Below, piece after piece: positions 1,849 to 62,946 of a stretch of DNA of 64,000 nt. Source of the stretch: a virus. Within the stretch, counting starts at the first letter, position 1; every line of letters starts with the position of its first letter. Position numbers and translations under genes: made by a program. Under the pieces are notes generated by a model that saw only the letters and a program-made list of their open reading frames with translations, did not search any database and was not told the origin of the DNA. Where the stretch lies: the IMG/VR virus record IMGVR_UViG_3300025840_000013, one strand, 5' to 3'.

Positions 1849-4800
1849 ATGGATAGAACTAATTTACAAAATATTGCATCTAGGATAAGAGAACAACTTC
1901 CTACTTATTTAAACAGTAGTGAATATGATAACTTTGTTCGTTTTTTAGAACTGTATTATGAATGGTTGGCACTAGATGACAATGTTAGTAATGTCACTGG
2001 AAAAATTACTTCACTTACAGACTTAGACGAAACTTTTGATGTTTTTGTTCAAGAGTTTAAGTCTGAACTTGCTGGCGCATGGCCAACCATTACCAAGATT
2101 AAGACAAATACTCAAATTGCAACTGAAATTTTGCAAGAATTAAACAATGGCGATGATGCAGAAACATCTATAGATACTACTGCTGACCAAGAATTTTTTA
2201 CTGACGGTGTTTCTGCAAAATATGTAATGGATTATTTTAATCCCTTTTATTATTTCTCAGATCAAGATGTAGACACAAAAGTTACTAAGATACGAGTCTT
2301 TATAAATGATGTCAATTTTGCTGGAAGAGTTGGGGAATCTTTAAGTGATGTTGTAGATAATTTAACACCCCCAAATGATGACCCAACAGGAAGCACTGGT
2401 GATTGGGTTGAATTAATTGAGGGAGTTGATTATAGACTTTTAGAAAACTCTATTATTTTTCAAGATGAAAATAACGATCCGATTGTTCATGATAATCGTG
2501 ATATTATAAAAATAAGATTTTATTTGAGAACTTTTATAAGTCCTACTGCAGACGTAGATACTGAATCTGCAATCCAAAAATTAGTAGAAGAAAGTGGAAA
2601 AGAAAAAACCAGATATACTAATGAAAGAAACTTTTTAAAGTTAATTAATAAGTTCTATAAACAAAAGGGCAGCGAAAGTTCCTATAAATTTTTGTTTAGG
2701 GCACTGTTTAATGAAGATATAGAAATATATTACCCAAAAGAAAACTTGTTAAAACCAAGTTCTAATACTTGGCAAACACTAACAAGTCTTAGGACTGTTC
2801 CGTATGAAGGCCCAATTAAGATCAATCAACCACTGTTCATTGAAGGTGAGTCTAGTGGTGCCTCAGCAAATATTGAATATTTCAATGATTATACTTTAGG
2901 TGATTATAAAGTTCGTGAATATGTAATTAGTTCTATCAATGGTGAGTTTTCTAGTAAAGAAACTGTAAAAATAAAACAAATAGATTCATCCATTTATGAA
3001 GAAAGTTTATATGAATGTGTCGTAGGATTTGAAATAGAAAATCCTGGCGAAGATATGCCACGAAATTTGACACTGCAAAATAATTTATCTTCAAATGGTA
3101 GTGGTTATGGTTTTGCTGCAAAAATCGCACACACTTCTTTCGGCCCAGTTGAAAATATCAAAATTGTTAATAATGGAGATCAGTATATTACTGGCGAAAC
3201 AATTGAGTTTCAAAATGGCAACACATTGGGTTCATATGCTATTGGTCAAATTAGTTCTATTCAATCCGTTAAAAATAATTTTAGTGTTTCATTCTTTCAA
3301 AACCCAGAAAGTTTAGAATATCCAGTCATGTCATTTGATATTGGACTTTCGGGGTTTGATTTTGGCCCTAGAGCACAAAATCCATCAGTTACGATTGAAA
3401 ACATAGATTATCTCTATGATGATGTTTTTTATCTATACGATTATGAAGACATCTATAATAGAAAAATTACACATCAGGTCCAAACGTTTTTTGCCGCCGT
3501 CAAAGATTATAAGACTGGGGAGTTAAGTTCTACTTATAGAAGTTCTATAACTCCAGTCGAAGAACCACCATTTATAATTACAAATTTAAATGAAGGTGAT
3601 CCCACAGAATATAGATTAAGAACAGACTTGGAGTTTCAAGTTACATCTGTAAATGAATTTGGTGGTATTACTGGAGTTTCAATTACAAATAACTTAGCAA
3701 GTCCAACCAATGTTTTCCCACAGATTGCGGATGTAAGAAACCAAACTGCAACCTATCATCAAGGTAGAGGTGTAGGTGCGTTGTTTGATGTTGCATATCT
3801 TGATAATGTAATAACTTCTGTCACTTTAGGGAGTCAAGAAACTTCTAAACATTATGTCCCTGGCGATTTTATTAAAATTGACGGCGAACAATTTTTTAAT
3901 GGTGTGTCGGGTGTTCATGATATCTTTATAAAAGTATTGACTGTTACAGGTGGTTCGGCATATTTAAATCTAGACGCATCTTCATATACTACAACTTCTA
4001 GAATTGGTACAGGCGCTGTGTGGGATATTGATACAGACGAACCCAGTTATCCCCAAAACCTTTCTGTTCTTTTGAGTGATGCAAATGCACAAGGAGTTTT
4101 ATCACCAACTACAAATTATATCGTTGGGGATAAGTTTACAATTTTAGGTTCTGTTGTTGGTGGTACGGATGGAGAGAATGATGTAACAATTACCGTAACA
4201 GAAGTCAACGATGAAGGACGAATCGAAGATTTTGAAGTTTTTGCAAATCCAATCACTGGACATATATCAACATTTGAAGTTTTAAATCCAACAACTCCGA
4301 TGCCAGATGGATATTCATATTACTACGCACCACAATATACCGCTTCTACTCAAAATGGCGGAACTTCTGGAACAGGTGCAATATTTAATTTCATTAGAAG
4401 AGATGGGACAACATATTATGTAACAAATCCTGCGTCAAGATTTAATGGAATTAACTATTCCGTTGGCGATTCAATTACAATAATTGGTAGTGAATTGGGG
4501 GGTGTTGATGGAATTAACGATCTAGTTTTTGATGTAATTAAGATTGACGACAATGGTGGTATATTGCAGATTGGAAATATTAGTGGAACTGCTATTAATT
4601 CATCGCCAGAAAATCTAAACAAGAATGATAATTTAGTTAGTGTTATGTCTAATGGTTATGGTGCAACCTTTGATGTTAATATTAATAACGGAGTATATAC
4701 TGTTACGCCAAATCAACCAGGCGCCAATTATCTTGTAGGACAAAATTTTAAGATTAAAGGTTATAAGTTAGCACACCAATACTTAAAAGAAGGATTTAAA

Positions 4801-7800
4801 GCAGGACTTGCAAAGGTTGGGGAACATGCATTATACACAGATTATGGATGGTTGAGAAGTGATAACATCGATCTAAAATTTGATGTCGAGTTAACCAACA
4901 AAGAACTAACAATCGACTTTTGGTATTTTAGAAAATCTATTTCTATTACAGATATAGATTCGCCCGGCGGCGTTATTTTTGCAATCAACAGTGAAGATGG
5001 TGGTACTCAACATTTAACCCTTTGGCAAAATTATGATGGTACAATTGATTTAATTGATTCTTCTGGAAATGTACTTGGTGCAAGATCAGTTCCGTTTGGA
5101 GAGTGGAATCATATAGCGGTTTATTTTTCTAACGATGGAACTTCTATCTATTTGAATGGACTATTAGAAAATACAATTCCTGGCGTCAATATGTTAAATT
5201 ATAGTACAAACTCAAATTTCTATATTGGTGCAAGACAGATTGTAGATGGAAATTCTTTAGTAATTATGAATGATTATACTCTTGGTTTCTTTGGTGCATT
5301 CAGAATGACTAAAGGACAAAGATATGTTGCTAATTATGAATCTAATATTACTTTAGAAGGAGATCCTGCAGCAGTCGAGGCGGCATTTGATGATTGGTAT
5401 AGATTTTCACATTCTGGTGCATCATCATACCAAGCAATCCCCAGCGACTTGTCTGCATGGATTTATAACTCTAGTACAAATAGTATTGAATGTACCGCAA
5501 ACACAGGTAGTTTTACTGGTTTTATTGGCTCAACTCCTGCAACAAACTTAGAATTTGAATCCGTCATGTCAAGTACTTCATCAGATGATGATACACTTGC
5601 GCTTATAGTTGGATTTGTGACTAATGGATTACAACCTACAGACGCTGGATATAAAGAATATACTTTAAGTGCGGTCAGAAATATGGGCGGAACTACTCCT
5701 AATGTTGGTTGGGGAATAGTATATAATTATCTACAAGATGATCAGATTGTTCTTCAAACATCTAATGTACCGTTTATTTCTGGTGGATGGAGTGCAAATG
5801 GTGCTACAAAAGTAAAAGTAATAAAAAATGGTGCCAGTGTATATGCAACTACTTCCCAGAATGGGTCAACTTCTTTAGATTCTTCAACTACACTTTATGT
5901 TGATTTGAGTACAAACCCAGTCTTAAATAAATTTGAAGGTGCAATTCAGTGGGGTTTTGGCGCACACAGTCAAGATGCTGCGAACTTCTCATTGTTAGAT
6001 GCATCGGGTTCTTCTACTGGTGTTTTAGTAGAAGATAAGGGAACCCAGAACCCTGTTTCTGGTAATGGAATAAGTCCAGAACATGTCAATCCTATTCCCT
6101 TTAAACAAGATATTAGACAGTCATCAAGATATCTAGAAAGAGTTGACGCCGTTGGAGGCGAAACAGTTATTGAATTATTCTATGACAGTAATTCTGCAGT
6201 GAGAATATTCAAAGTTACAGATAGTATTATCACTCCAGAAAACATTCCAGATGCATTCCCAACAAATCCTATAGAACGGTTGGTATGGGAATGGGCGGAT
6301 AATTATTATATCTGGATTGATGGTGCATGGAAAAACTATGTTGAACTTGACCCATCAGAGTATAATGCAACAACAGGTACTGCGATAACCTTTACTAATC
6401 CGTTAGTTGCTGGTGATATTATAATGATTAGATATTATGGTGCTTTGTCGGACAAGCTTGAATATGTGATATTCAATAGTGAATCTTTAGTAGAACCAAA
6501 TAAAATCAGATTGAGAAGGTGGGTAGATAATCCTCAAACTCTTGATGACACTATGGCGCAATATCAATTGCCTGATGCCCATACACTGACTGTTGGATGG
6601 GAAGAAATTCCAAAGTCTGGTATTGAGACTACTAGACTTATTACAGGTGGTGAGGGTTACATTAGATATCCATATGGAAATGTTGCGAGGGAAACATTGT
6701 CGTATACTTCTACTGGTAGAAGTGGAGTTTTGCGAGGACTTGGAAAAGATATTGGTAAAATTAATAGACTAGAAATATACGCAAATCCATTTAGAGAAGA
6801 TTTTGACGGATTTGGAGTTGGATATGATACTCCACCAGAAATTGACTTGAGTAATTATGGTAATGGACAGGCATCTATTAAAGTACTAACTGGGCCTCTA
6901 TGTGTTCGTGATGGTGTTTATGTCAACCAACAAGGATTTATTTCAGATGATAATCGTATTCATGATGGTTATCTGTGGCAGGATTATTCTTATGTTGTAA
7001 AAGTAAACAGATATATTGATGAGTGGAGAAGAATCGTTAAGAAGATTATTCACCCCGCTGGTTTGATGATGTTTGGAGAATTTACTACTCTAACTAAGGC
7101 CTCTGTAAGAAAAGGACTTGGGGTTGCATATCGTGAACTCATGTTCGAAATTATTAAAAATGTTAATTTGAGAATGCGTAATATGGATGGTAGTGGAAGT
7201 TGGACATATGCTACTGCCCAACAAACTGATATCAACGATTTGAATTCTCATGGTTATTATTTTGTGTATGATAATCGTCAACTTAGTATTGACAGTGAAA
7301 TTGATGGCCTTTATCAAGGTGTAGGAACTGGAGAAATATCTGATGATACAGTTGGTGCAGCAACGGTAGATAGTGGGTCTGGTAGATATGCATTATTAGA
7401 TGAAAATGGAAATAATGCTTTGCGCTGGGAAGATGTAAAGAAAATCGCAATTAACTACAAAGATGCATATGGAAAAGATTATGGACACTATTGGTCGTCT
7501 AAAATACTTGGTAATACATTTACAATATATGATACATCTGATGAGAGTATGACTAATGATGAATGGATAAATGTAAGGCCTTGGGCAAAGTATGTTGTAG
7601 AGAGTGTAGAACTAGATCCTGATTATCTTGACAGAATTGCAGTTTTTGATGTGAAGATTATTCAGTCTTATAGAGAACTTCCTTCTACTGCTCCTCAGAA
7701 TAGAGTTGAGTTTAGATGGGACAACATTTGGCGTGGGAATGTAAACAGACAACCAAACTATTGGGTTGGTGCTATTGCAGATGGTGCAAATCCAAGAGAT

Positions 7801-8514
7801 GAAAAAATGGTGATAAATATAACAGGTAAGTATATGTTCTACAAAAACTATACTGGTGACCTGCCGACATTACACACCACATACAGGTCACTAGAAAGGT
7901 TTAAGTTTTACTTTACTTCCAGATTCCCTTGGGAAAGGTTGAGACCATTACTGTTTAGTCCTCAGAGAGAAATGGATAATTCTCCATATCTGATAAAACG
8001 ACCAATTGTAAATGGAAATGGATTGACTCATATTCCCGCAAAGGCAGAAGGCCTTGGGATTTGGTATCACTTACCAGTGGATGCAACAGATAATGATTGG
8101 ATTGCAAATACAGACGGAACAGATCATAATTGGAGAAATACTGTAATTGAAGATGTTGTAAAACTTGCAGATAACAAATATCGTGCGGTTTTAGATTCGT
8201 TTATTAATATTACACCTGTATTCTTGATAATGAGTGAGGAAGAACCAGATGTCCCGACTAGAAAAAGACTGGGGCCTACAAATTTAACAATTGAGAGAAT
8301 AAAATTTAATGATAGATTACAATCAGGACTTGATTATAATGTAGATAGAGTTGACTATGACGAAAATTTATTAGACTTGAATACTTTTATAAAGTATCAA
8401 GCAGAACACATTCATGATAAGTCAAATGTCGCACCAGAATCATCTATTGTACTGTATAATACGAATCCAACAACAATTGAAGAATTAAATCAACAGATTG
8501 TTCTGAAAGACTAA
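1849..8514 (+). CDS. gp7: baseplate wedge initiator gp7-like protein, 2221 aa, with inserted repeat, LamG and lectin-like domains
   Basis: Lies between gp6 and gp8. N-terminal FVRFLELYYEWL and FYKQKGSESSYKFLFRALFNEDIEIYYP; C-terminal IHDGYLWQDYSYVVK...W..IVKKIIHPAGLMMFGE, typical of cyanophage-type gp7. Four G.GA.F.V...NY.VGD.I.I.G repeats (~3765-4760) and a LamG-like segment (TIDFW, WNHIAV, IYLNG, FYIGA; ~4900-5330). Confidence 0.88.
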   Translation: MDRTNLQNIASRIREQLPTYLNSSEYDNFVRFLELYYEWLALDDNVSNVTGKITSLTDLDETFDVFVQEFKSELAGAWPTITKIKTNTQIATEILQELNNGDDAETSIDTTADQEFFTDGVSAKYVMDYFNPFYYFSDQDVDTKVTKIRVFINDVNFAGRVGESLSDVVDNLTPPNDDPTGSTGDWVELIEGVDYRLLENSIIFQDENNDPIVHDNRDIIKIRFYLRTFISPTADVDTESAIQKLVEESGKEKTRYTNERNFLKLINKFYKQKGSESSYKFLFRALFNEDIEIYYPKENLLKPSSNTWQTLTSLRTVPYEGPIKINQPLFIEGESSGASANIEYFNDYTLGDYKVREYVISSINGEFSSKETVKIKQIDSSIYEESLYECVVGFEIENPGEDMPRNLTLQNNLSSNGSGYGFAAKIAHTSFGPVENIKIVNNGDQYITGETIEFQNGNTLGSYAIGQISSIQSVKNNFSVSFFQNPESLEYPVMSFDIGLSGFDFGPRAQNPSVTIENIDYLYDDVFYLYDYEDIYNRKITHQVQTFFAAVKDYKTGELSSTYRSSITPVEEPPFIITNLNEGDPTEYRLRTDLEFQVTSVNEFGGITGVSITNNLASPTNVFPQIADVRNQTATYHQGRGVGALFDVAYLDNVITSVTLGSQETSKHYVPGDFIKIDGEQFFNGVSGVHDIFIKVLTVTGGSAYLNLDASSYTTTSRIGTGAVWDIDTDEPSYPQNLSVLLSDANAQGVLSPTTNYIVGDKFTILGSVVGGTDGENDVTITVTEVNDEGRIEDFEVFANPITGHISTFEVLNPTTPMPDGYSYYYAPQYTASTQNGGTSGTGAIFNFIRRDGTTYYVTNPASRFNGINYSVGDSITIIGSELGGVDGINDLVFDVIKIDDNGGILQIGNISGTAINSSPENLNKNDNLVSVMSNGYGATFDVNINNGVYTVTPNQPGANYLVGQNFKIKGYKLAHQYLKEGFKAGLAKVGEHALYTDYGWLRSDNIDLKFDVELTNKELTIDFWYFRKSISITDIDSPGGVIFAINSEDGGTQHLTLWQNYDGTIDLIDSSGNVLGARSVPFGEWNHIAVYFSNDGTSIYLNGLLENTIPGVNMLNYSTNSNFYIGARQIVDGNSLVIMNDYTLGFFGAFRMTKGQRYVANYESNITLEGDPAAVEAAFDDWYRFSHSGASSYQAIPSDLSAWIYNSSTNSIECTANTGSFTGFIGSTPATNLEFESVMSSTSSDDDTLALIVGFVTNGLQPTDAGYKEYTLSAVRNMGGTTPNVGWGIVYNYLQDDQIVLQTSNVPFISGGWSANGATKVKVIKNGASVYATTSQNGSTSLDSSTTLYVDLSTNPVLNKFEGAIQWGFGAHSQDAANFSLLDASGSSTGVLVEDKGTQNPVSGNGISPEHVNPIPFKQDIRQSSRYLERVDAVGGETVIELFYDSNSAVRIFKVTDSIITPENIPDAFPTNPIERLVWEWADNYYIWIDGAWKNYVELDPSEYNATTGTAITFTNPLVAGDIIMIRYYGALSDKLEYVIFNSESLVEPNKIRLRRWVDNPQTLDDTMAQYQLPDAHTLTVGWEEIPKSGIETTRLITGGEGYIRYPYGNVARETLSYTSTGRSGVLRGLGKDIGKINRLEIYANPFREDFDGFGVGYDTPPEIDLSNYGNGQASIKVLTGPLCVRDGVYVNQQGFISDDNRIHDGYLWQDYSYVVKVNRYIDEWRRIVKKIIHPAGLMMFGEFTTLTKASVRKGLGVAYRELMFEIIKNVNLRMRNMDGSGSWTYATAQQTDINDLNSHGYYFVYDNRQLSIDSEIDGLYQGVGTGEISDDTVGAATVDSGSGRYALLDENGNNALRWEDVKKIAINYKDAYGKDYGHYWSSKILGNTFTIYDTSDESMTNDEWINVRPWAKYVVESVELDPDYLDRIAVFDVKIIQSYRELPSTAPQNRVEFRWDNIWRGNVNRQPNYWVGAIADGANPRDEKMVINITGKYMFYKNYTGDLPTLHTTYRSLERFKFYFTSRFPWERLRPLLFSPQREMDNSPYLIKRPIVNGNGLTHIPAKAEGLGIWYHLPVDATDNDWIANTDGTDHNWRNTVIEDVVKLADNKYRAVLDSFINITPVFLIMSEEEPDVPTRKRLGPTNLTIERIKFNDRLQSGLDYNVDRVDYDENLLDLNTFIKYQAEHIHDKSNVAPESSIVLYNTNPTTIEELNQQIVLKD

Positions 8515-8523
8515 AAAATAAAT

Positions 8524-8531
8524 TATAAATA
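8524..8531 (+). promoter_or_regulatory. T4-type late promoter (gp55 sigma)
   Basis: Exact TATAAATA in the intergenic gap, 35 nt upstream of the gp8 ATG. Confidence 0.85.
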
Positions 8532-8565
8532 GTATTAAAATTCATGACACTAAAAAGGTAAAAAA

Positions 8566-10260
8566 ATGGCAGCGATTATTACAAACAAATTAAGAATTTT
8601 CAATGCAATGGAATTCTTGCAATCAATTAACAGATCCGCACCTAATTGGAAACCTAACAATACCTATGCAGAAGGTGATGTTGTGGTCAACAACCAGAAC
8701 TCATTTATTGCACTAGGAAATATTAGTGGTTCTTCCACAAGTGGTGTTTCTGCTGGTGATGGGGATGGCCCAGCACCAGATACTCTCCAAGATGGTACTG
8801 TACAGTGGGCCCATCAAGGACAATCGGTTTACAATATGCTTTATATGGCAATTGGTAAACAAACTCCTTGGTTAAATGATTCAAACCCACCGACACCAGA
8901 AGATTCAATTGGTTACTCATATAGATTTAAGTACGATACAATTGCACTTAAGAAAGTCAATTACAGTGATATGACTCTTGCAATTCCAAGAATCAACTGG
9001 ACTTCTGGTAGAGTATATACTATGTACGAACATGATAACCCAGAAGAAATTATTCCAAATGGATATGTGATTGTTGCATCTGGAAATCAATTTAATGTTT
9101 ATAAGTGTATTAATAACCAAAAATATGATGCTGCTGCCCAAACAGTGACTACAGTTGCTTCAACAGTCCAACCATCAACTACTGGAACAGAAATTGAAGA
9201 GACTGTAGATGGTTATAAGTGGAAGTTTATGTATGCAATCGATCTTCAAGATTCTCTTAAATTCTTGACAAAAGATTATATTCCAGTTAAAAATCTTCTA
9301 GAAGATCCAGTTGCACCTGGCACCGCCGCTCAGGTACAGTGGGACATCAAACAAGCCGCATCTCAACCAAATCCTGGCCAAATTGAACATGTAAAAATTA
9401 TGCCAAACGAAGAGGGTGGTGCGATTGGTGGAGGATTGGGTTATCATCCAAACATTCAACAAACAGCCTCTGTTACACTAACTGGTAATCAAGTTACCAT
9501 CGCCGGTGTTGACGGTGCGACAGATTATACTGGTTATGATTTAGTAGACCTTGGAAATCAGGAACAGTTTAGAATTACAAACTGGAGTCTTTCTGGTACA
9601 ACTGCAACTGCAAATGTAAACGGTTCTTTTACTGGTGGTGCTGGTAGAGATATTCTTATTGCGCCCGGCGTTAATATTTCTGGTAATGGTTCTTCTTTCA
9701 GTGCATATGGACTTGTCGTAGACCAAAGAATTGAAAAAATTGTTATCACCAGTACTGGTGCAAATTGGTCTGCTGTAGACAACGCAACCGTTGATGTTAA
9801 TAATGTTCCAGCATACAATTTCGATGGAACATTGAATGTAAATGCATGTAAAGTAAAACCAATTGTTTCCCCAGAAAATGGACATGGATTTAATCCTGTA
9901 GAAGAATTGGGTGGTTATTATGTAATGACTGCAATAAAACTTGAATATGACGAACAGTCTACAAGAGAAAATTCTTTGGGGAGTTTGGAAACTAAGATTA
10001 TGTTTCCTGTCGAAAATTCTGAAGCACAGTTTAGACAGATTGCTATTGTCGCTGATCCCGATGCACAGACTCAGGGTGGGTCGACTCCTGCAAACGAAGA
10101 GTCATATAGAGGCCCACAGCACCCAGATTTTGGTTCTGCAGATGAAGAAACATTTGATATCGTAACTGGTACAGGTAAAGTTCTCTACATTGAAAACCGA
10201 CAGCCCGTTTCTAGAGCCATTGATCAAATTGAAGATATTAAAGTAGTATTTGAATTCTAA
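8566..10260 (+). CDS. gp8: baseplate wedge subunit gp8
   Basis: MAAIITNKLRIFNA, PRINWTSG..Y.MY, VYKCINN, DGYKWKFMY, KFLTKDYIPV, GHGFNPVEELGG, FRQIAIV.DP, GKVLYIENRQPVSRAIDQIEDIKVVFEF are all gp8 hallmarks. Confidence 0.95.
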   Translation: MAAIITNKLRIFNAMEFLQSINRSAPNWKPNNTYAEGDVVVNNQNSFIALGNISGSSTSGVSAGDGDGPAPDTLQDGTVQWAHQGQSVYNMLYMAIGKQTPWLNDSNPPTPEDSIGYSYRFKYDTIALKKVNYSDMTLAIPRINWTSGRVYTMYEHDNPEEIIPNGYVIVASGNQFNVYKCINNQKYDAAAQTVTTVASTVQPSTTGTEIEETVDGYKWKFMYAIDLQDSLKFLTKDYIPVKNLLEDPVAPGTAAQVQWDIKQAASQPNPGQIEHVKIMPNEEGGAIGGGLGYHPNIQQTASVTLTGNQVTIAGVDGATDYTGYDLVDLGNQEQFRITNWSLSGTTATANVNGSFTGGAGRDILIAPGVNISGNGSSFSAYGLVVDQRIEKIVITSTGANWSAVDNATVDVNNVPAYNFDGTLNVNACKVKPIVSPENGHGFNPVEELGGYYVMTAIKLEYDEQSTRENSLGSLETKIMFPVENSEAQFRQIAIVADPDAQTQGGSTPANEESYRGPQHPDFGSADEETFDIVTGTGKVLYIENRQPVSRAIDQIEDIKVVFEF

Positions 10261-10294
10261 TTAAAATAAAAAACCAGTTGAGAGAAGAAGACAC

Positions 10295-17230: not shown

Positions 17231-17242
17231 TTGGAGAATATA

Positions 17243-17443
17243 ATGAGACTAAAAGTTAAGGGTAATAAAGATCTTGTCAGAGATACGAACTCACAGGCGA
17301 TAATAAATACTGATAACAATGGTTATAATAATTTTATCAGAAGGTCTAATGCACTTAGAAGGCGTGACGATGAAATAAAAGATTTACAACAAGAAATGAA
17401 TGAAATAAAAAACACACTAAACTTAATATTGGAGAAACTTTAA
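17243..17443 (+). CDS. small conserved T4-like cyanophage-type protein (66 aa, C-terminal coiled coil)
   Basis: KVKGNKDLVRDTNSQAIINTD...EIK..LNLILEKL, the small gene usually following VrlC. GGAG at 17233-17236 favours ATG 17243 over the TTG at 17231. Confidence 0.75.
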   Translation: MRLKVKGNKDLVRDTNSQAIINTDNNGYNNFIRRSNALRRRDDEIKDLQQEMNEIKNTLNLILEKL

Positions 17444-18643: not shown

Positions 18644-18671
18644 TTAATTAGTAAGAGAAGAGAATTCTAAC

Positions 18672-24356: not shown

Positions 24357-24384
24357 TTGATAAAGTAATGAGAGAAAAAAATTA

Positions 24385-26433: not shown

Positions 26434-26475
26434 TGAATATAGTTTGAGAATTTAGTAAAACAACAAAAAAATTTT

Positions 26476-26483: not shown

Positions 26484-26509
26484 TAAAGAAAAATACAAAG
26501 GAGATATGA

Positions 26510-35664: not shown

Positions 35665-35677
35665 ATACCAAAGAAAA

Positions 35678-40837: not shown

Positions 40838-40850
40838 TGGATAGTTAAGA

Positions 40851-46437: not shown

Positions 46438-46445
46438 TATAAATA
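46438..46445 (+). promoter_or_regulatory. T4-type late promoter
   Basis: Exact TATAAATA directly after the PAAR stop; GGAG RBS then TTG start at 46475. Confidence 0.85.
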
Positions 46446-46474
46446 ATGTATAAAAGATAAGACGGAGTTTTTCA

Positions 46475-47407: not shown

Positions 47408-47416
47408 ATTCTTTTT

Positions 47417-47424
47417 TATAAATA
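47417..47424 (+). promoter_or_regulatory. T4-type late promoter
   Basis: Exact TATAAATA (near match TATAAATT at 47403-47410) upstream of AGGAG and ATG 47469. Confidence 0.85.
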
Positions 47425-47468
47425 ATAAGAAATAAATAATTGCAATTTAAAATAATAGGAGTTTATTA

Positions 47469-51362: not shown

Positions 51363-51378
51363 TTGAAAGTTTAAGGTT

Positions 51379-51410
51379 TCGGTCATACTGAGTATGGCCG
51401 ATCCTAAATA
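51379..51410 (+). promoter_or_regulatory. intergenic hairpin followed by late-promoter variant CCTAAATA
   Basis: TCGGTCATAC-TGA-GTATGGCCGA 10-bp stem (one G-U pair) with no U-tract; CCTAAATA at 51403-51410; GAGG RBS before ATG 51430. Confidence 0.5.
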
Positions 51411-51429
51411 GTAAGAAAAGAGGAATTTA

Positions 51430-54400: not shown

Positions 54401-57400
54401 AAGATATTAATGCAAATATAACTGGACAAGTTTCAGATATCAGTAATCACACTACTACCGACCTTGCGGAAGGAACTAATCTTTATTATACTCAATCAAG
54501 ATTCGATACTGCGTTTGGTGTTAAGTCAACGACTGATTTAACTGAGGGTACAAATCTTTATTATACTCAATCAAGATTCGATACTGCGTTTGGTGTTAAG
54601 TCAACGACTGATTTAACTGAGGGTACAAATCTTTACTACACAGATGCCAGAGTTGACTCAAATTTTGCAACCAAGACTACAACAGATTTAACTGAAGGTA
54701 CAAATCTCTATTATACTCAAGCAAGATTTGATACTGCGTTTGCAACAAAAGATACAGATGATTTAACCGAAGGTTCTACAAATCTGTACTATACGGATGC
54801 TAGAGTAAATACTTGGGCGACTGCAAACCTTGCAAATGTTGCCTTCTCTGGTTCATATGCGGATTTATCAAATACCCCTACAGATTTATCTGATTTCACT
54901 GATACGACTGGACTTTTAGATGTCGCAGCAATTACTGTAGGTGATGCTGCTCCATCAAATCCAAATGATGGTGATTTGTGGTTTGATTCTACAGAATTAA
55001 AAACATTCATTTATTATAACGATGGAACTTCCTCACAGTGGGTTGAGGCGGCAGGAGATGGTGGTGCATCTGTACAATCTTCTAGTACTGCTCCTAGCAG
55101 TCCTTCAGACGGCGACCTTTGGTTTAACGATAATAACCTTAAACTGTACATATATTACAATGACGGTTCCTCAGCACAATGGGTCGAGGCGTCAGGGGGT
55201 ATTGCACAGGATACGGATGCAATCCCAGAAGGTAATAATAACCTTTACTACACTGATACAAGATTTGATACAAGATTCGCAACAAAAGACACAGACGATT
55301 TAATAGAAGGTTCTACAAATCTTTATTACACAGATGCTAGAGTTGATGCAAGAATTACTGCTTCTGCATTGGGTTCTACTGATGATTTGCCAGAAGGTTC
55401 TACAAATCTTTACTACACAGATGCAAGAGTTCAATCGGTTAGTATAAATGAAGTTGTAGAAGATACAACTCCCACATTAGGCGGCAACTTAAATTCTGGT
55501 GGATTTAATATTACTAATATTAGTGCAGATGGTTATAGTCTGCCAGTTGCAGATGGTACAAATCGCCAAGTTATTATGACAGATGGTAGCGGTACGTTAT
55601 CGTTTGAAAATTTAGACACAATTCATACTGAAGTAACAAACCAAACTGGGTCAACTATTCTTAAAGGCACACCTGTTTATCAAACAGGAACAAGTGGCAA
55701 TGCAATGACAATTGCACCAGCTGATGCAAGTAGTTCAGCTACAATGCCAGCGGTTGGTGTTTTAGAACAAGATTTAGCATCAGGTGCTACAGGATTCGTC
55801 ATTCATATGGGTCGAATCTCTGGAGTTGACACAAGTGCATTTAATGAAGGCGACATAATTTATGTTGCAGTCGGTGGTGGTTACACAAATACCCCTCCAG
55901 TTGGTGAAAGTAATCTATTACAAAACTTAGGCCGTGTCACAAAAGTTCATGCATCCAACGGCGGCGGCGTTATTATGGGTGCAGGACGTACAAATGCTGT
56001 ACCTAACTTAAACAGTGGAAACATTTTCATCGGTAATGCAAGTAACCAAGCAACTACTGCATCATTAAATACCTCTGTACAAAATTATCTATCGAATCTT
56101 TCTGGTAGTATCGTTCCAGATACAAATGTTACTTATGATTTGGGTAGCAATACAAATAGGTTCAAAGACATTTATTTGAGTGGAAGTTCTATCTATCTTG
56201 GAACTTTACAATTATCTGACAATAATGGGGCCCTTGAGGTAACTGCAAGTGGTAGTACAGAAGCATTTGCAACAGAAACTTATGTTGACACTGCAGTTGC
56301 AAACTTAGTAGATTCTTCCCCAACTACATTAGATACACTAAACGAACTTGCAGCTGCCTTGGGAGATGATCCAAACTTTAGTACTACAATTACTAATTTG
56401 ATTGGAACAAAACTTGCAACAGCAGATTTTAATACAACTGCTGATAGTTGGTTAACTGGTAAGACAACCACCGATTTAACTGAGGGAACAAACCTTTATT
56501 ATACAGATGTAAGAGTTGATGCAAGAATTGCACTTCAAACAGGTGCAAATCTTTCACTTGCAAATAAAACTACGGATGATTTGTCTGAAGGTTCTGCAAA
56601 CCTTTATTATACAGATGCCAGAGTTGAAACATATCTGGAATCGAATGCAACTGCAGACAGAATACAGTTAAGAACAAATAATTCGTATTTCGGTGTTGGA
56701 ACTGCTGCTGGTTCTGCTGGCATGGCAATTAAAAATAATAGTGGTCAACCATTCTTCTATGGACAAAAATATCTACCGGCAAATAATGGACAGACTGACC
56801 TAGAACTAGAAGCGAATGCTGGTGGTAAAATCAATGTAAATGCATTTAGAATTTATAATGTTGGAACGCCAACTGACCCATCTGATGCGGCCACAAAATC
56901 TTATGTCGATTCTGCAATTGCAACAAAAGATCAATTATCAGAATTGTCTGGAACTACCGATGACATTTCCGAAGGTTCTACAAATCTCTACTACACAGAT
57001 GCAAGAGTAGATGCTAGAATTACTGCATCTAATCCATATGATTCTTCTGATTTTGATGCTAACTTTTCTGGCAAGTCTACAACCGATTTAACCGAAGGTA
57101 CAAATCTTTACTATACAGATGCTAGAGTTGACGCAAGAATTACTGCATCTAATCCATATGATTCTTCTGATTTTGATGCTAACTTTTCTGGCAAGTCTAC
57201 AACCGATTTAACCGAAGGTACAAATCTTTACTATACAGATGCTAGGGCGGATGCGAGAGTTGCTAATGCAAATATTGGAGTATTGAATGATGTAAATACA
57301 ACTGGAATTGCGACTGGAGATTTCCTTCTGTATGATGGTAATGAATTTCTACCAGTCGATTTTGCAACTGAAGTAAACACATATGCCGATACTCGTATTA

Positions 57401-60400
57401 ATACTGCAAGTATTCAAGACTTATCGGATGTAGATGCAGTTGATACACCAGCAAGTGGAGATGTTTTATTATATGATGCTGGAAATAGTAATTTTGGATT
57501 TATTAATCTTGGTAATGAAATTAATTCATATTTTGACACACGGTTTGCAACAAAAGACACAGACGATTTAACGGAAGGTACTACCAATCTTTACTATACT
57601 GATGCAAGAGTTGCCTCTTATTTGTCTGGTACAGGATATGCTACAACTTCATATGTTGCAGCACAAATTGCAAGTATTTCTTCAGATTTAGATGATGAAG
57701 TATATGACAGAGAACAGGCAGATTTAAATTTACAAAGTCAAATAGATTCACTGACAACAAATATTGGTACTTTAGTTCTTGACGATCTTAGTGATGTAGA
57801 TACGACTACAACTGCACCAACTAATGGACAAACTCTCATATTCAATGGTACAACTTTTGTGCCAGGCACTATTTCGGGTTATACAAGTACAGATTTTGAT
57901 ACGGACTTTGGAACGAAATCCACAACTGACCTTTCTGAAGGTACAAATCTTTACTATACTGATGCTAGAGTTAGAACTCACATCCAAGGCGCCGACCTTG
58001 ATATGGGTTCGAATAAGATCTTATTTTCTAATGTTTATGCAAATACTGGTGATTTGCCAAGTGCTTCATCTTACCATGGTATGTTTGCACATGTACACGG
58101 TACAGGAAAGGCATATTATGCCCATAATGGACAGTGGGTAGAACTTGCAAATGTATCTGAACTACCAACTAATACTGATGATGTTTCAGAAGGTTCTACA
58201 AATCTTTATTATACAGATGCCAGATTTGATGCAAGACTTGCTACAAAATCTACAACTGATGTTGTAGAAGGAACAAATCTTTACTATACAGATGCAAGAG
58301 TTGATGCTAGAATTACTGCATCTAATCCATATGATTCTTCTGACTTTGATACGGACTTTGGAACGAAATCCACAACTGACCTTTCTGAAGGTACAAATCT
58401 TTACTATACAGACGCAAGAGTTCAATCATATTTAACCGCACAAGGAATTGCGGCAGAAACACTGACTTCACTTGGAATTGCAGGAAATGTTCTGACATAT
58501 ACAGATGAAGATGGTAATACAACAAATATTGATTTATCTCTCTACTTGGATGATACAAATCTTGCAAGATTAGTAAGTGGTACATTAAATGGAACTACTG
58601 GTATTGCAACATTCACTAGAGATGATGCAACAACATTTACTATTGATTTTAGTCCTCTATTTGATGATACAAATCTTTCAAGAATTAATAGTGCAACATT
58701 TACAAATGGAACATTAACTCTTACTAGAGATGATGCATCCACCGCTGCAACTATAAGTCTGGATGGAAGATATCTTCAAGATCTATCTGGTCTAACTACA
58801 GATAATCTTTCGGAAGGTTCTACAAATCTTTATTATACTCAGACAAGATTTAATTCTGCATTTGCTGGCAAAACAACTACAGATTTAACTGAAGGTACAA
58901 ATCTATATTACACGGATACTAGATTTGATACAAGACTTGCTACAAAATCTACAACTGATTTAACTGAAGGTACAAATCTATATTACACTGATGCAAGAGT
59001 TGATGCAAGAATCGCAGCTGCGAATATTGTTTCTGGTTCTTCTATTGATGACCTTTCTGATGTAGATACTTCAACCACAACACCAACGGATGGGCAGGCA
59101 CTCGTTTGGGATAATACAAATAGTAAGTGGGTGCCTGGCGCATCCGCTGGTTCTTCTATTGATGTTTCTGACATTGCACCCTCAAGTCCATCAGATGGAG
59201 ACTTGTGGTTTGATTCTTCAGAATTAAAAACTTACATTTATTATAACGATGGAACTTCTTCTCAGTGGGTAGAAGCTGCAGGAAATGTTGCATCTAATGT
59301 ACATCTTTCAGATGCAGCTCCAAGTTCTCCATCTGAGGGCGACTTGTGGTTTAATAGTAGCAATCTTAGACTTTATGTTTACTATAATGATGGAAATTCT
59401 TCCCAGTGGATTGAAGCTTCTGGTTCTGTAAATTCTACAGGACAAACTTCTCTTGATGACTTAACGGATGTAGATATAACCACAACTGCACCTACAAATG
59501 GTCAAACTCTTATATTTAATGGTACAAATTTTGTGCCCGGCACTATTTCTGGTTATGCAACATCAGACTTCAACACAGATTTTGCAACTAAAGATACAGA
59601 TGATTTGACTGAAGGTTCAGTAAATCTTTATTATACAGACACCAGAGTTCAAACAAAACTTGGTAATGTTTCTGGACATATTATTCCCGACACAGATGTA
59701 ACATATGACTTGGGTAGTTCAACTCACAAATTTAGAGATTTGTATCTAAGTGGAAATAGTATTACTCTTGGTGGTATTGTTCTCACTGAACATTCTGGTG
59801 CTCTTCAAGTACATACAACTGGTGGCGGGTCTGCACAACCATTTGCAACTGTTTCATATGTAGATACTGAACTTGCAAACTTGGTGAGTTCTGCACCAAC
59901 AACATTAGATACTCTTAATGAACTTGCTGCGGCTCTTGGTGATGATCCAAACTTTGCAACTACAATTACCAACTTGATTGGAACTAAACTTGCAATTACT
60001 GATTTTAATACAACTGCCGATTCTTGGTTAACGACAAAATCTACAACTGACCTTTCTGAAGGAACAAATCTTTACTATACAGACGCAAGAGTTCGTTCAC
60101 ATGTTGAAGGACAAGATTTAGATTTAGGAACTAATAAGGTTCTGTTCTCTAATATGTATGCAACTATTGGAGATTTACCTTCAGCTGCATCTTACCATGG
60201 AATGTTTGCACATGTCCATGCAACTGGTAAGGCATATTATGCCCATGGTGGTTCATGGATTGAGCTTGCAAATGTATCAGAAGTATTTGATGGAACTTGG
60301 GCATCTCTCACTGGAACCCCAACAACAATCGCTGGTTATGGTATTACAGATGCATTTGACGGAGACTATAATAGTTTAACAAATAAACCATCCGTACCGT

Positions 60401-61263
60401 CTGCGTTAGACGATTTGACGGATGTAGATTTAACAACAACATCACCCACAGATGGACAGGCACTTATTTGGGATAGCGCAAACTCTGTTTGGAAGCCGGG
60501 TAATGTTGCTTCTGGCGGTGGAGGTGGAGCTTCCGTTTCTGTATCCGACACCGCACCTTCTTCTCCTTCTGTTGGTGATCTTTGGTTCAATTCTGCGAAC
60601 ACAAAGATGTATGTGTACTTCAATGATGGAACATCGTCACAGTGGATTCAATCAAACCCATCAGGTGCGACTTCACCAATTATTTCGTCCGATACTGCAC
60701 CTACAAATCCTGTTGTAAACAGTCTTTGGTTTGACTCATCAGACGATTCATTATATTTCCGTTATGATGATGGTTCATCAGAACAGTGGGTCAATCTTAT
60801 TGGCGCCTCCGGCGGAGGCGCCTCAGTAACAGTATCTGATACTGCACCAACATCACCAAACGCTGGTGATATGTGGTTTGATAGTCAGTATGCTACTCTT
60901 CTTATTTATTACAATGATGGCACTAATTCTCAGTGGGTCAGTGTTTCTGGAGAAAATAATTCAACATCTACACCACAATGGCAAGAACAATCTGCAGATT
61001 ATACTGCAAGTGCTGGTGATAAACTGTTTGTTGACTGTAGTTCTAGTGCGGTTACTGTAACACTTCCATCCTCACCATCACAGGGAGATGAAGTTAGAAT
61101 AATTGATGCGACAGGTAATGCATCTATAAATAATATAACCATAAATAGGAGTGGAAGCAATATTCAAGGTGCTGCAGATAATCTAATAATAACAACGGAT
61201 AGGGCCGCATTTGGGTTGGTTTATTATAACGCAACTCAAGGTTGGTTACTAATGGAGAGATAA
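51430..61263 (+). CDS. giant repeat-rich tail-fibre-like protein, 3277 aa
   Basis: About 40 T.DL.EG(S)TNLYYT..R repeats; 7 AP..P...(D)LWF....Y.Y.DG.S.QW modules; 3 YHGMFAHVH modules; 2 PTTLDTLNELAAALGDDPNF fibre motifs; GGTGAT.AADARTNLGL; C-terminal TVTLP.SP..GD.V.IID..G......I.R.G..I.G domain resembling T4 gp34 proximal-fibre repeats. Confidence 0.85.
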   Translation: MTNAIPIRVVVDGSGDTTGLSEFRTNETVGLDHGGTGATNAADARTNLGLADIAASGSWADLLNKPNTDDIPEGTTNLYFTDERVDDRVAALIVDGVGIQKNYDDAGNLLNIEINFSEFDTDDIIEGSVNTFLANRSTSDIPEGINLYFTDERVDDRVAALFVDGKGIQKAYDDAGNLLNIAIDFSEFDTDDIVEGTVNTFLSNRTTDDINEGTANLYYTDERVDDRVANLFVDGKGLTKNYDDAGNLLNVEIDFSEFDSDDIVEGAVNTFLANRTTDNIPEGSTNLYFTETRSRNSISATGSINYDPATGVISYTQGDTDTIVEGATNLYYTDERVDDRVANLILDGQGITKSYDDAGNLLNIAIDFTEFDSDDIIEGAVNTFLASRTTDNIPEGSTNLYYTEARFDARLATKSTTDLAEGTNLYFTEERVDDRVAALIQAGEDISVVYDDVANTLTIALASSIDGINLSNNTTDDLSEGSTNLYYTDSRVNIAFDTRLATKSTTDLSEGTNLYYTDARVDSNFAAKTTTDLTEGTNLYYTEARFDTRLATKSTTDLTEGTNLYYTDTRVATYLNNNGYTTTSAVAAQIASVSSDLDDEIYDREQADLNLQSQIDNLVLNDLTDVNASSPTSGDALVWNGTSWVPQAPFSQTDFDSAFAAKTTTDLTEGTNLYYTDTRVRSHVEGQDLDLGSNKILFSNVYSALGDLPNASSYHGMFAHVHGTGKAYYAHNGQWVELANDGDLPTSTDDLPEGSTNLYYTDTRVRSAISATTGVAGYVSSTGVFSIPSSTDHISEGTNLYYTDARFDARLATKSTTNLSEGTNLYYTEARFDARLATKSTTDLTEGTNLYYTDARVDANIASKTTDDVAEGSTNLYYTDSRVATYISGNRTYGNITTTGYIAGPSTLTIDPAGVGDNTGKVVIAGDLQVDGTTTTINSTTVEVGDLNIVLGSGATNAAAANGGGITIDLGTDGSASFTYNSTTDEFLSNKDINANITGQVSDISNHTTTDLAEGTNLYYTQSRFDTAFGVKSTTDLTEGTNLYYTQSRFDTAFGVKSTTDLTEGTNLYYTDARVDSNFATKTTTDLTEGTNLYYTQARFDTAFATKDTDDLTEGSTNLYYTDARVNTWATANLANVAFSGSYADLSNTPTDLSDFTDTTGLLDVAAITVGDAAPSNPNDGDLWFDSTELKTFIYYNDGTSSQWVEAAGDGGASVQSSSTAPSSPSDGDLWFNDNNLKLYIYYNDGSSAQWVEASGGIAQDTDAIPEGNNNLYYTDTRFDTRFATKDTDDLIEGSTNLYYTDARVDARITASALGSTDDLPEGSTNLYYTDARVQSVSINEVVEDTTPTLGGNLNSGGFNITNISADGYSLPVADGTNRQVIMTDGSGTLSFENLDTIHTEVTNQTGSTILKGTPVYQTGTSGNAMTIAPADASSSATMPAVGVLEQDLASGATGFVIHMGRISGVDTSAFNEGDIIYVAVGGGYTNTPPVGESNLLQNLGRVTKVHASNGGGVIMGAGRTNAVPNLNSGNIFIGNASNQATTASLNTSVQNYLSNLSGSIVPDTNVTYDLGSNTNRFKDIYLSGSSIYLGTLQLSDNNGALEVTASGSTEAFATETYVDTAVANLVDSSPTTLDTLNELAAALGDDPNFSTTITNLIGTKLATADFNTTADSWLTGKTTTDLTEGTNLYYTDVRVDARIALQTGANLSLANKTTDDLSEGSANLYYTDARVETYLESNATADRIQLRTNNSYFGVGTAAGSAGMAIKNNSGQPFFYGQKYLPANNGQTDLELEANAGGKINVNAFRIYNVGTPTDPSDAATKSYVDSAIATKDQLSELSGTTDDISEGSTNLYYTDARVDARITASNPYDSSDFDANFSGKSTTDLTEGTNLYYTDARVDARITASNPYDSSDFDANFSGKSTTDLTEGTNLYYTDARADARVANANIGVLNDVNTTGIATGDFLLYDGNEFLPVDFATEVNTYADTRINTASIQDLSDVDAVDTPASGDVLLYDAGNSNFGFINLGNEINSYFDTRFATKDTDDLTEGTTNLYYTDARVASYLSGTGYATTSYVAAQIASISSDLDDEVYDREQADLNLQSQIDSLTTNIGTLVLDDLSDVDTTTTAPTNGQTLIFNGTTFVPGTISGYTSTDFDTDFGTKSTTDLSEGTNLYYTDARVRTHIQGADLDMGSNKILFSNVYANTGDLPSASSYHGMFAHVHGTGKAYYAHNGQWVELANVSELPTNTDDVSEGSTNLYYTDARFDARLATKSTTDVVEGTNLYYTDARVDARITASNPYDSSDFDTDFGTKSTTDLSEGTNLYYTDARVQSYLTAQGIAAETLTSLGIAGNVLTYTDEDGNTTNIDLSLYLDDTNLARLVSGTLNGTTGIATFTRDDATTFTIDFSPLFDDTNLSRINSATFTNGTLTLTRDDASTAATISLDGRYLQDLSGLTTDNLSEGSTNLYYTQTRFNSAFAGKTTTDLTEGTNLYYTDTRFDTRLATKSTTDLTEGTNLYYTDARVDARIAAANIVSGSSIDDLSDVDTSTTTPTDGQALVWDNTNSKWVPGASAGSSIDVSDIAPSSPSDGDLWFDSSELKTYIYYNDGTSSQWVEAAGNVASNVHLSDAAPSSPSEGDLWFNSSNLRLYVYYNDGNSSQWIEASGSVNSTGQTSLDDLTDVDITTTAPTNGQTLIFNGTNFVPGTISGYATSDFNTDFATKDTDDLTEGSVNLYYTDTRVQTKLGNVSGHIIPDTDVTYDLGSSTHKFRDLYLSGNSITLGGIVLTEHSGALQVHTTGGGSAQPFATVSYVDTELANLVSSAPTTLDTLNELAAALGDDPNFATTITNLIGTKLAITDFNTTADSWLTTKSTTDLSEGTNLYYTDARVRSHVEGQDLDLGTNKVLFSNMYATIGDLPSAASYHGMFAHVHATGKAYYAHGGSWIELANVSEVFDGTWASLTGTPTTIAGYGITDAFDGDYNSLTNKPSVPSALDDLTDVDLTTTSPTDGQALIWDSANSVWKPGNVASGGGGGASVSVSDTAPSSPSVGDLWFNSANTKMYVYFNDGTSSQWIQSNPSGATSPIISSDTAPTNPVVNSLWFDSSDDSLYFRYDDGSSEQWVNLIGASGGGASVTVSDTAPTSPNAGDMWFDSQYATLLIYYNDGTNSQWVSVSGENNSTSTPQWQEQSADYTASAGDKLFVDCSSSAVTVTLPSSPSQGDEVRIIDATGNASINNITINRSGSNIQGAADNLIITTDRAAFGLVYYNATQGWLLMER
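57016..57245 (+). repeat. recent direct tandem duplication (~110 bp identical, 120-bp period)
   Basis: 57016-57125 is identical to 57136-57245; a related copy lies near 58300-58410. Confidence 0.9.
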
Positions 61264-61266
61264 TAA

Positions 61267-62946
61267 ATGGCTGTAAATTTTCCAGATAGTCCCTCAAATG
61301 GTGACAACTTTACCGCAAATGGAATTGTGTATATTTACAATTCTACAAAAGGTGTGTGGGCAAAACAATCTACAACCGCACCACCAGTCGTTAATGGACA
61401 TGTTTTACCAAATGCAAATGAAGTTTATGATTTAGGAAGTACAACACAAAGATTCCGTGATATTTATTTGAGTGGTAATACTATCTATTTGGGCGATACT
61501 GCCTTGTCTGTGGATGAAAATGGAGTTTTAGGGTTGCCGGCTGGAACTGTTATTGACGGCACGACAATTCCAAGTGCAGTAGAAGAATTATCTGACATCG
61601 ATGTAACAATATCAGATGAAATATTTACATTAAATGTAGATGCACCAGATGCAGGCCATGGTATGCATTGGAAGTGGACTTGGGAAGCTGGATCGGTTGC
61701 ATATAGTAGACTTAAGATAACTAATTTAATTCAATCAAATGTTCCATTATATAATCAGGGAACTTATACAATCAATAACTTTGCAGCACATGAACTTCAT
61801 GGTTCGATGACTCAAACTCATAAAATTTATCTTAAGTGGATTGAGGGCGCCGGTATAGATAATCTAGTTTCATGGGCAACAATTACAGACAGTGTGACAG
61901 GAGTTACCAATCCAAACATAAATGGTGGAAATGCAACAGAAGTACAAAGAATTGTCATAAATGTTCCATCTACAATCACACCACCAACTTTAAATGCACC
62001 AAGTGTGTCATATGATGTATCTTTTGTATCATCGGGTGCGTATACCTTTGCTGGTAGTTCTTCGGGCGATAATCCAGATATTGGCCCATTCTATCGTGGT
62101 GGTACATATACTTTTAATTTAGACGCATCACTTTCTGGACATCCATTTTATTTAACCACAGACGATGGTACTAATTATTCTGCAGGAAATTATGTCGATG
62201 AATACACTTCTGGCGTAACAGGTTCGAGAAATGAAAGTGGAACTTTGGTATTTACCGTTCCAAATGATGCACCAGATACATTATATTATCAATGCGGAAA
62301 TCACAATCCTATGAGGGGTATGATTACAATTAAAGATTTAGCAGTAGAAACAAATGTAGATGGTAATTATGTTGTATATTTCCAACACGACCAAGATGGA
62401 CATTCAACACCAGCAGAGATACGCCCAAAACGAACACTCGCAGATATTGATAATGTATGTTTAGTTTATGATGGCCCTTCTGGAAAATTTAAAGTGCAGG
62501 ACATGGGAGAATATCTAGATTCTACTTCTCAATTTCAGTCAAAGATTGCAAATTTAGTAAATACAGAAACTGCAGACAAACCAACAACCACACAAGTAAC
62601 AGACAAGATTAAAGATGAAACTGTATTTAATATTAACATGCATCAAGGTGGAGATTTACAAGTAATCACTGGCACAAAAAGGTGGTATGCTCCATTTGAT
62701 TTACAGATAGTAGGTATTTCAGCAAATCTTGGAACCGCTGCAGATAATATCGTAGGAATTGATGTAAAGAATAACGGAGTTTCTGCAAAAACTGTTTCAT
62801 TTTCTCCAAATACCACAACAACAAATATTGTTGCCCCATTTTTTACAATGAATGCTGGGGATTATTTAACAGTTGATATTACGAGTATTGGAACTAACTC
62901 CGTTGGCCAAGACCTCTATCTGCAGTTTACATATAAAAAAGTATAA
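61267..62946 (+). CDS. fibre-associated protein with cupredoxin-like (type-1 Cu ligand) domain, 559 aa
   Basis: N-terminal MAVNFPDSPSNG...NG..Y.YN....W module; YDLGS....FRDIYLSG repeat; GHPFYL...FTVP.DAPDTLYYQCGNHNPMRG; C-terminal GDYLTVDIT.IG....G.DL domain. Confidence 0.75.
   Translation: MAVNFPDSPSNGDNFTANGIVYIYNSTKGVWAKQSTTAPPVVNGHVLPNANEVYDLGSTTQRFRDIYLSGNTIYLGDTALSVDENGVLGLPAGTVIDGTTIPSAVEELSDIDVTISDEIFTLNVDAPDAGHGMHWKWTWEAGSVAYSRLKITNLIQSNVPLYNQGTYTINNFAAHELHGSMTQTHKIYLKWIEGAGIDNLVSWATITDSVTGVTNPNINGGNATEVQRIVINVPSTITPPTLNAPSVSYDVSFVSSGAYTFAGSSSGDNPDIGPFYRGGTYTFNLDASLSGHPFYLTTDDGTNYSAGNYVDEYTSGVTGSRNESGTLVFTVPNDAPDTLYYQCGNHNPMRGMITIKDLAVETNVDGNYVVYFQHDQDGHSTPAEIRPKRTLADIDNVCLVYDGPSGKFKVQDMGEYLDSTSQFQSKIANLVNTETADKPTTTQVTDKIKDETVFNINMHQGGDLQVITGTKRWYAPFDLQIVGISANLGTAADNIVGIDVKNNGVSAKTVSFSPNTTTTNIVAPFFTMNAGDYLTVDITSIGTNSVGQDLYLQFTYKKV

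Follow-up and report, generated by a model that had tools for sequence, protein, structure and literature searches.

An important question raised by the DNA of the virus record IMGVR_UViG_3300025840_000013 in IMG/VR is why several short restriction-type palindromes are nearly absent from it, unless they overlap the trinucleotide GGC or its complement GCC. The whole stretch analysed here, i.e. 64,000 nucleotides (64 kb, henceforth the window), belongs to an uncultured marine T4-like phage. It has a G+C content of 36.6% and carries all of its genes on the plus strand, with T4-type baseplate wedge genes (gp6/gp7-like, gp8 and DUF4815) followed by giant structural, fibre-like open reading frames (ORFs). 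An initial annotation, made by eye from the letters of this stretch, had proposed that CCGG, CCNGG and GGNCC are tolerated only when they contain GGC or GCC, and had considered either a phage-borne modification of GGC/GCC that shields such sites or host enzymes with W-flanked specificities. The reading that best fits our data, to which we would assign a probability of roughly 0.6, is that the GGC/GCC rule reflects a shield directed to cytosine.

Site numbers were compared with those in 300 synonymous-codon shuffles within each gene, which keep the proteins, the dipeptides and the per-gene codon usage, and, as a second null model for GGWCC, with the expectation from base composition. With H as 'not G' before a site and D as 'not C' after it, HCCGGD and HCCNGGD represent the unshielded classes; figures written as x/y below are observed/expected, except where the subject is a count of sites or loci. 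In the window, GGWCC occurs only twice, against 44.7 expected by composition and 38.7 ± 3.6 (minimum 30) by shuffling, and GGSCC occurs 55 times. HCCGGD and HCCNGGD are both completely missing (36.2 ± 5.0 and 46.3 ± 4.1 expected in the shuffles), as are CGCG and CGWCG (24.1 and 29.0). By contrast to these unshielded classes, sites with a G before or a C after them are found, and they make up all 24 CCGG, all 39 CCWGG and all 8 CCSGG sites, i.e. 47 of 47 CCNGG. This flank effect is restricted to CC-N0-GG and CC-N1-GG, with the unshielded class being near expectation at spacers of 2–8.

How the sites that the proteins impose are accommodated can be read from the codons. Glycine before proline is encoded by GGC or GGG in 36 of 37 Gly-Pro pairs, as compared with 16% of the glycine codons elsewhere in the window, and the resulting GGNCC therefore contains GGCC. 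GGC is the glycine codon in 32 of the 44 Pro-Gly pairs, and a codon ending in G precedes each of the remaining 12. The initial annotation had estimated just these features, namely two GGWCC where dozens were expected, Gly-Pro as GGC/GGG-CCN in about 36 of 37 cases, a C after or a G before every Pro-Gly site, and some 24 CCGG that were all gCCGG or CCGGc, and exact counting bears out each of them; likewise, the codon-preserving shuffle supports its view of an anti-restriction type of signature that acts at the codon level. Its list of three avoided sites, all of which were confirmed, was too narrow, however, since avoidance is far wider and includes CGCG, CGWCG, ACGT, AGCT and about 20 hexamer palindromes.

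Relatives of this phage allow the same pattern to be followed through longer genomes. No cultured phage is close (gp8 identity to any of them is at most 28%), and IMG/VR contains many fragments that are 93–98% identical to the window as well as a 128,880-bp relative of about 92% identity, G002, which spans it. By walking overlapping contigs from both ends of G002 (G045, G051/G050 and G052) until the circle closed, we obtained a composite of about 221 kb, whose tiles are 92–98% identical to the window; a side observation is that CheckV implies a genome of 160–195 kb for this clade. In G002, HCCGGD (0/94), HCCWGGD (0/59), HCCSGGD (0/34) and CGCG (0/140) are absent and GGWCC is rare (5/89), and the figures for the composite are equally clear-cut (HCCGGD 0/159, HCCNGGD 0/159, GGWCC 8/151, CGCG 0/237, CGWCG 1/151). 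Between the window and G002 there are 4282 substitutions over 58.8 kb, which created 0–1 forbidden sites per class, whereas random placement of the same 4282 substitutions creates on average 12–20 new sites per class. Avoidance is thus actively maintained by purifying selection.

The two explanations offered by the initial annotation make different predictions for sites flanked by C on the outside, which would be tolerated by W-flanked enzymes, but forbidden under the GGC/GCC rule. These classes are missing as well: CCCGGW, WCCGGG and CCCGGG taken together number 0 versus 18.6 expected in the window and 0 versus 62.7 in the composite, with the same figures for the C-flanked versions of CCNGG (0 versus 18.6 and 0 versus 62.7, respectively). 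This favours the GGC/GCC rule and eliminates separate W-flanked enzymes (0 versus ~63) as its cause. With a shield on just one side, sites are found in the expected numbers (GCCGGD 32/33, HCCGGC 30/37.5), which means that a single shielded half-site suffices.

The rule not only survives, but also covers GCGC as well as the hexamers GGCGCC, GCCGGC and NGGCCN. In the composite, TGCGCA is absent (0/24), and TGCGCC (41/15), GGCGCA (17/13) and GGCGCC (21/8) are all present. Similarly, of the 32 hexamer palindromes in which four or more letters are G/C, all six that hold GGC or GCC are found in the composite at 0.9–2.8 times expectation, whereas 23 of the other 26 are below 0.25 times (the exceptions being CTGCAG, CAGCTG and CCATGG). 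The same split by GGC/GCC content is seen in the hexamers of G006, which represents a lineage of 51% identity. Rescue occurs where the C that follows the G falls inside the site (GCCGG, GCCNGG, GCGCC) and does not occur where only the G does so (CGCGCC plus GGCGCG, 0/16 in the composite). Because of which overlaps rescue a site, the putative mark would have to be located on the first C of G-C-C. A plain GC-dinucleotide shield as made by an M.CviPI-like enzyme is ruled out, since CGCG, AGCT, GTGCAC, TGCGCA and GCATGC all hold GC, yet are purged. A GCT shield is ruled out as well, because G-flanked CTAG is not enriched and AGCT is avoided; with GCT-containing AGCT being avoided, the protective motif behaves as GCC and not as GCY.

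Further away from the window, the components of avoidance come apart. G006 shows HCCGGD at 3/90 and HCCNGGD at 0/90, with GGWCC (44/86) and CGCG (63/133) hardly being avoided. In a lineage of 57% identity, HCCNGGD alone is avoided, but not CCGG, GGWCC or CGCG. In a group with only about 30% identity in gp8, CCGG, ACGT and CGCG are all absent, and every one of the few CCNGG left is shielded. The complete genome of the related Pelagibacter phage Mosig does not show the flank rule (HCCWGGD 41/17), but purges ACGT, CGCG, GATC and GGSCC instead. (In the first 50 kb of Mosig (L101, L394, L395), ACGT is at 0/148, GATC at 8/148, CGCG at 0/36 and GGSCC at 0/12, and CCWGG is in excess.) Because these components separate between lineages, several restriction pressures act and not just one, and the most widespread of them is the CC(N)GG flank rule.

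What could produce this combination of absence and tolerance? We propose that restriction acts on the phage at a large number of short palindromes. Those that synonymous changes can eliminate would simply have been lost (GGWCC, CGCG, CGWCG, most ACGT and AGCT and some 20 GC-rich hexamers). Sites enforced by the protein sequence, i.e. CCNGG from Pro-Gly, GGNCC from Gly-Pro and some CCGG and GCGC, would be written such that they overlap GCC or GGC, with the first cytosine of G-C-C most likely being modified by the phage after replication. A single modified half-site would then block cleavage in a manner similar to hemimethylation. Of the modification of GGC/GCC suggested in the initial annotation, a cytosine mark thus seems the best candidate, whereas neither of the two enzyme types that it had in mind was found in the clade. 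A 7-deazaguanine is not supported: the TGT superfamily, to which DpdA belongs, has no match on any clade tile, with all control genomes matching, although queC/D/E and folE were not searched, and the position logic points to C. PF00145 C5-methylases have no match on G002, G045, G047–G055 and 38 further clade fragments (control genomes match); absent from every tile of the closed composite, a C5-methylase was discarded as the candidate, and the enzyme of this clade is probably not of that kind. Tet_JBP has no match on the clade tiles either (with phage Melnitz as a positive control at 44.4 bits, positions 5697–6089), and G002 alone contains no C5-methylase, N6_N4 methylase, D12 Dam or TGT gene.

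What the clade does contain, just after gp46/gp47 and outside of the window, are two adjacent genes with matches to N6_N4_Mtase, p217 and the gene for a 443-amino-acid (443-aa) protein, both of which score above the curated cut-off of 26.7 bits. p217 has FTSPPDF near its N-terminus and DPFMGSGTT near its C-terminus, with the aromatic residue displaced by one position relative to S-P-P-(Y/F), and the 443-aa protein features VLDTSMGWGDR and FTSPPYF. Here, DPFMGSGTT and VLDTSMGWGDR would represent the SAM-binding FxGxG motif. An SPP(Y/F) motif is typical of N4-cytosine methylases. The two genes stay adjacent between lineages even where their order is inverted. For the 443-aa gene, marine metagenomes yield more than 2300 homologues, all of them unnamed, and cultured phages no close one. 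At 80 IMG/VR loci carrying it (735 kb; 62–100% identical), HCCNGGD is at 0/453 with 224 shielded CCNGG sites, and 80 of 80 loci obey the rule, whereas Mosig, which has no rule, yields no tblastn hit for the 443-aa gene, Mom or the Melnitz-type C5-methylase and no N6_N4_Mtase match. More likely a candidate than a C5-methylase, this adjacent pair of TSPP-motif proteins of the N4-cytosine type may be the enzyme behind the shield in the window's clade, a tentative assignment that falls short of being probable.

The rule is also obeyed by the closest cultured relative, Methylophilales phage Melnitz (141.5 kb, complete), in which GGWCC (0/107), HCCGGD (0/113), HCCNGGD (0/113) and CGCG (1/171) are virtually absent. 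Next to its DNA polymerase gene, Melnitz encodes a C5-methylase (TIGR00675 dcm, 155 bits), and 80 loci with a methylase of this type all obey the rule (HCCNGGD 5/451). The best match among solved structures is SpCmoX of Synechococcus phage S-B43 (PDB 8YF3; E 6e-76, full length, with SPPC kept), but the alignment shows a Leu in place of Arg350, which is the carboxymethyl-binding residue of SpCmoX. Since a Tet_JBP gene directly follows the methylase gene, Melnitz probably carries a hypermodification of the 5-hydroxymethylcytosine (5hmC) type, which its paper does not mention. This gene pair is the published phage arrangement of a C5-methyltransferase (C5-MT) with TET, in which GpC[C/T] is the main consensus recognised by the C5-methylases (Burke et al. 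2021, PMC8256090), and this consensus matches the base and its context to which the rescued sites had pointed. Thus, in Melnitz-like phages, the C5-methylase and the adjacent TET enzyme would be the candidates for producing the mark. For the uncultured marine T4-like group, one can go further and imagine that the two-gene TSPP module puts N4-methylcytosine or a derivative on G-C-C, with codon choice having co-evolved such that every unavoidable CC(N)GG or GCGC sits under the mark, and with the Melnitz-like lineage having converged on the same solution via C5-methylase plus TET; in this full form, the scenario seems doubtful to us.

Several observations weigh against a cytosine-directed shield or its assignment to these enzymes. 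For CCTAGG and GCATGC, a G or C flank brings no rescue (0–1 versus about 9 expected for each), and AGCT, on which a GpC[C/T] enzyme would place its mark, is among the avoided sites. In Melnitz, hexamers containing GGC are not spared (25/57 pooled, GCCGGC 0/6). The 443-aa protein is a weak methylase match (29 bits), and its AlphaFold model (pLDDT 84) matches generic class I methyltransferases only. The gene content of the clade was read from contigs that are 92–98% identical to the window and not from the window's own genome, and the gene-to-rule associations come from related phages that are not phylogenetically independent. Moreover, the methylase families differ between the two lineages that have the rule in common, which implies either that two enzymes have converged on GCC or that the shield is some other thing that they share. 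Finally, the expectation that a GC mark gives rise to a GCC shield failed in S-B43, which had served as positive control. SpCmoX is a GC-directed C5-carboxymethyltransferase (PMC12783734), but S-B43, in which about 75% of the GC sites are modified, still avoids GGCC (10/71), GGSCC (0/28) and CCGG (1/71) and exhibits no shield, so a GC-type mark need not lift selection. (S-B43 also purges CCSGG, as seen at 120–170 kb (L309).)

The last of these points also speaks for the main rival explanation, which dispenses with a shield altogether. Here, the nucleases themselves would need a base other than G before and other than C after their sites, i.e. their targets would be HCCGGD and HCCNGGD, and the GGC palindromes would not be targeted at all. 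GGWCC and CGWCG, which are ordinary known restriction specificities, require no shield, six-base sites are indeed not rescued by their flanks, and a single dedicated enzyme would fit the avoidance of HCCNGGD alone in the 57%-identity lineage. Yet the same odd negative flank would be needed in unrelated enzymes for CCGG, CCNGG and GCGC, and we know of no characterised restriction enzyme with H…D flanks. The contrast in two lineages between GGC/GCC hexamers, all spared, and the other GC-rich hexamers, nearly all purged, would remain without explanation, as would the fact that the rule travels with phage cytosine-methylase genes. On balance, this explanation seems unlikely.

Alternatively, the shield might be real but host-made, with phage DNA receiving its GCC/GGC mark from an orphan methylase of the host during replication and the phage only exploiting this mark. 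This would explain why one motif is found across lineages that have different phage methylases, and H5P1, the host of Melnitz, is stated to carry a gene for a DNA methylase of type II (PMC9004378). However, the rule extends to lineages as distant as about 30% identity in gp8, whose hosts are probably different, and it tightly tracks the phage methylase genes, with Mosig, a relative devoid of these genes, also being devoid of the rule. All this makes a host-made shield quite improbable. We give even less credence to the idea that the phage itself encodes a nuclease, used for instance in degrading host DNA, which cuts at the forbidden sites, so that its own genome has to be free of them. HCCNGGD being zero in rule-bearing lineages (0/453, 0/159, 0/113), with the other avoided sites varying, would agree with such a nuclease, but no candidate for it is found beside the methylase genes, where the 443-aa gene has a methylase as its conserved partner, and an H…D specificity or a shield would still be required.

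This leaves the Mom-family gene, which lies outside the window in its relatives: homologues of 69–100% identity occur on at least 219 marine viral contigs, the protein aligns to Mu Mom (8BV8, E 4e-13) with MPRNSES conserved, and the best match in a cultured phage is a Melnitz protein (72.6%) annotated there as 'DUF465'. That this Mom homologue makes the shield by acting on cytosine or guanine rather than adenine is very improbable, even though it is the only modification gene that the window's clade and Melnitz were found to have in common, retains the MPRNSES motif in line with Mu Mom and is present at 80 IMG/VR loci (69–100% identical) that all obey the rule, because Mu Mom modifies adenine in SAS (PMC13219725) and GCC/GGC holds no adenine, because two unrelated phages with a 41%-identical Mom have purged all CC(N)GG, GGNCC and GGCC and show no shield, and because sites that contain SAS (GGWCC, CGWCG, GTGCAC, CACGTG) are purged here.

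Table 1. Features of the window and of related contigs discussed in the text (a..b, positions in the window; L, loci on other contigs or genomes).
Feature	Position	Strand	Remarks
Whole window carrying the signature	1..64000		HCCGGD 0, HCCNGGD 0, GGWCC 2, CGCG 0, CGWCG 0
First of 55 GGSCC (GGCCC)	2809..2813	+	Gly-Pro as GGC/GGG-CCN
Pro-Gly as CCT-GGC	3043..3048	+	Unavoidable CCNGG shielded via Gly codon GGC
Residual GGTCC, one of two GGWCC	3477..3481		GGCCC at the same place in the 92%-identical relative
gp8-like baseplate wedge gene	8566..10260	+	Used as probe; 80 related loci recovered
Pro-Gly shielded from the left, gCCTGGa	10372..10377	+	G at the end of the codon before it
CCGG shielded on one side only, tgCCGGat	17837..17842		
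Residual GGACC, second GGWCC	23667..23671		Not kept in G002
p217, first of the pair	L303:2830-3483 (contig G051)		70.6 bits PF01555; phrog_67
443-aa protein, second of the pair	L303:3483-4814 (contig G051)		29.0 bits N6_N4_Mtase
Mom-family gene	L085:13945-14742 (G002)	-	PF25680, E 3e-48; phrog_1384; ~20 kb upstream of the window region
Melnitz gene 6 (MZ577097), Tet_JBP dioxygenase	L182:5208-6194		Annotated as hypothetical; directly after the C5-methylase

Beyond the sites that define the rule, the composition of these genomes is peculiar in other respects. ACGT and AGCT are reduced to about 0.1–0.25 of expectation, neither CGCG nor CGWCG occurs and some 20 hexamer palindromes are lacking, but CGSCG and GGSCC, unlike CGWCG and GGWCC, are not depleted. 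By a second expectation, window and G002 give CGCG 0/71 and CGWCG 0/45. A second flank-dependent pattern is seen with ACGT, which is left almost solely as AACGT or ACGTT (87 of 97 sites in G002). In the window, and also in G002, all three codon phases show a roughly threefold depletion of the trinucleotide AGC/GCT; AGC accounts for 24 of 1801 serine codons (~1%), alanine codons follow a T-ending codon 855 times versus 150 times for an A-ending codon, and TGCA is in 2.6-fold excess. Possibly, the modification or defence system considered above also plays a part in this depletion. As to gene content, G002 also carries CsgG, CsgF and FecR, and the composite features AOX/PTOX, PhoH, ThyX, IMPDH/GMP-reductase-like and CobS-like genes. 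In the region 36480–38250 of the window, many staggered BLAST hits to G002 point to internal tandem repeats in multiples of about 84 bp inside a 1719-aa ORF.

If the cytosine-directed shield is real, a phage modification motif can be read down to the single base from a genome alone, i.e. from the flanks that rescue otherwise forbidden sites, and we are not aware, in the literature searched, of any earlier description of flank-dependent avoidance with a shield. It would follow that defence and counter-defence, rather than translation, can dictate codon choice at Gly-Pro and Pro-Gly. It also leads to a prediction for a phage in culture, namely a modification of Melnitz DNA at the first C of G-C-C, and to one for the products of an abundant family of unnamed methylase genes of marine phages. 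At a practical level, zero HCCNGGD in the presence of shielded CCNGG is a marker that splits marine T4-like phage lineages.

How does this system relate to known ones? Phage CAjan has 7-deazaguanine at GA and GGC, and GGC is thus common to both motifs, but the clade tiles show no TGT-family match as would be expected for DpdA (queC/D/E and folE were not searched), and the position logic speaks for the C rather than for the G pairing outside the site. The Mom homologue of the window's relatives is a clear member of the Mu Mom family; with Mom being adenine-directed, however, a mark on GCC/GGC would be beyond its reach, and it probably covers other sites. With the N4-cytosine methylases of the beta class, p217 and the 443-aa protein share the N6_N4_Mtase match and the TSPP motifs, but the 443-aa partner differs by its marginal match, its generic fold and its lack of close homologues in cultured phages. 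SpCmoX resembles the Melnitz methylase over its full length, including SPPC, and similarly belongs to a marine T4-like phage with a GC-directed cytosine mark (PMC12783734), yet Melnitz has Leu for Arg350 and S-B43 has no GCC shield. The phage systems of C5-MT plus TET (PMC8256090) differ from the window's clade, which has no PF00145 or Tet_JBP match and avoids AGCT, but a three-base non-palindromic motif beginning with GpC would be common to both, with the modified C being the one proposed here, and Melnitz combines their genes with the rule. Finally, as in palindrome avoidance known from other phages, short restriction-type palindromes are brought to nearly zero via synonymous codons and purifying selection. 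In contrast to that classical avoidance, however, it is flank-dependent here, with CCGG, CCNGG and GCGC being kept at expectation when they overlap GCC or GGC and being absent otherwise, and dipeptides that make such sites unavoidable are steered into the tolerated class.

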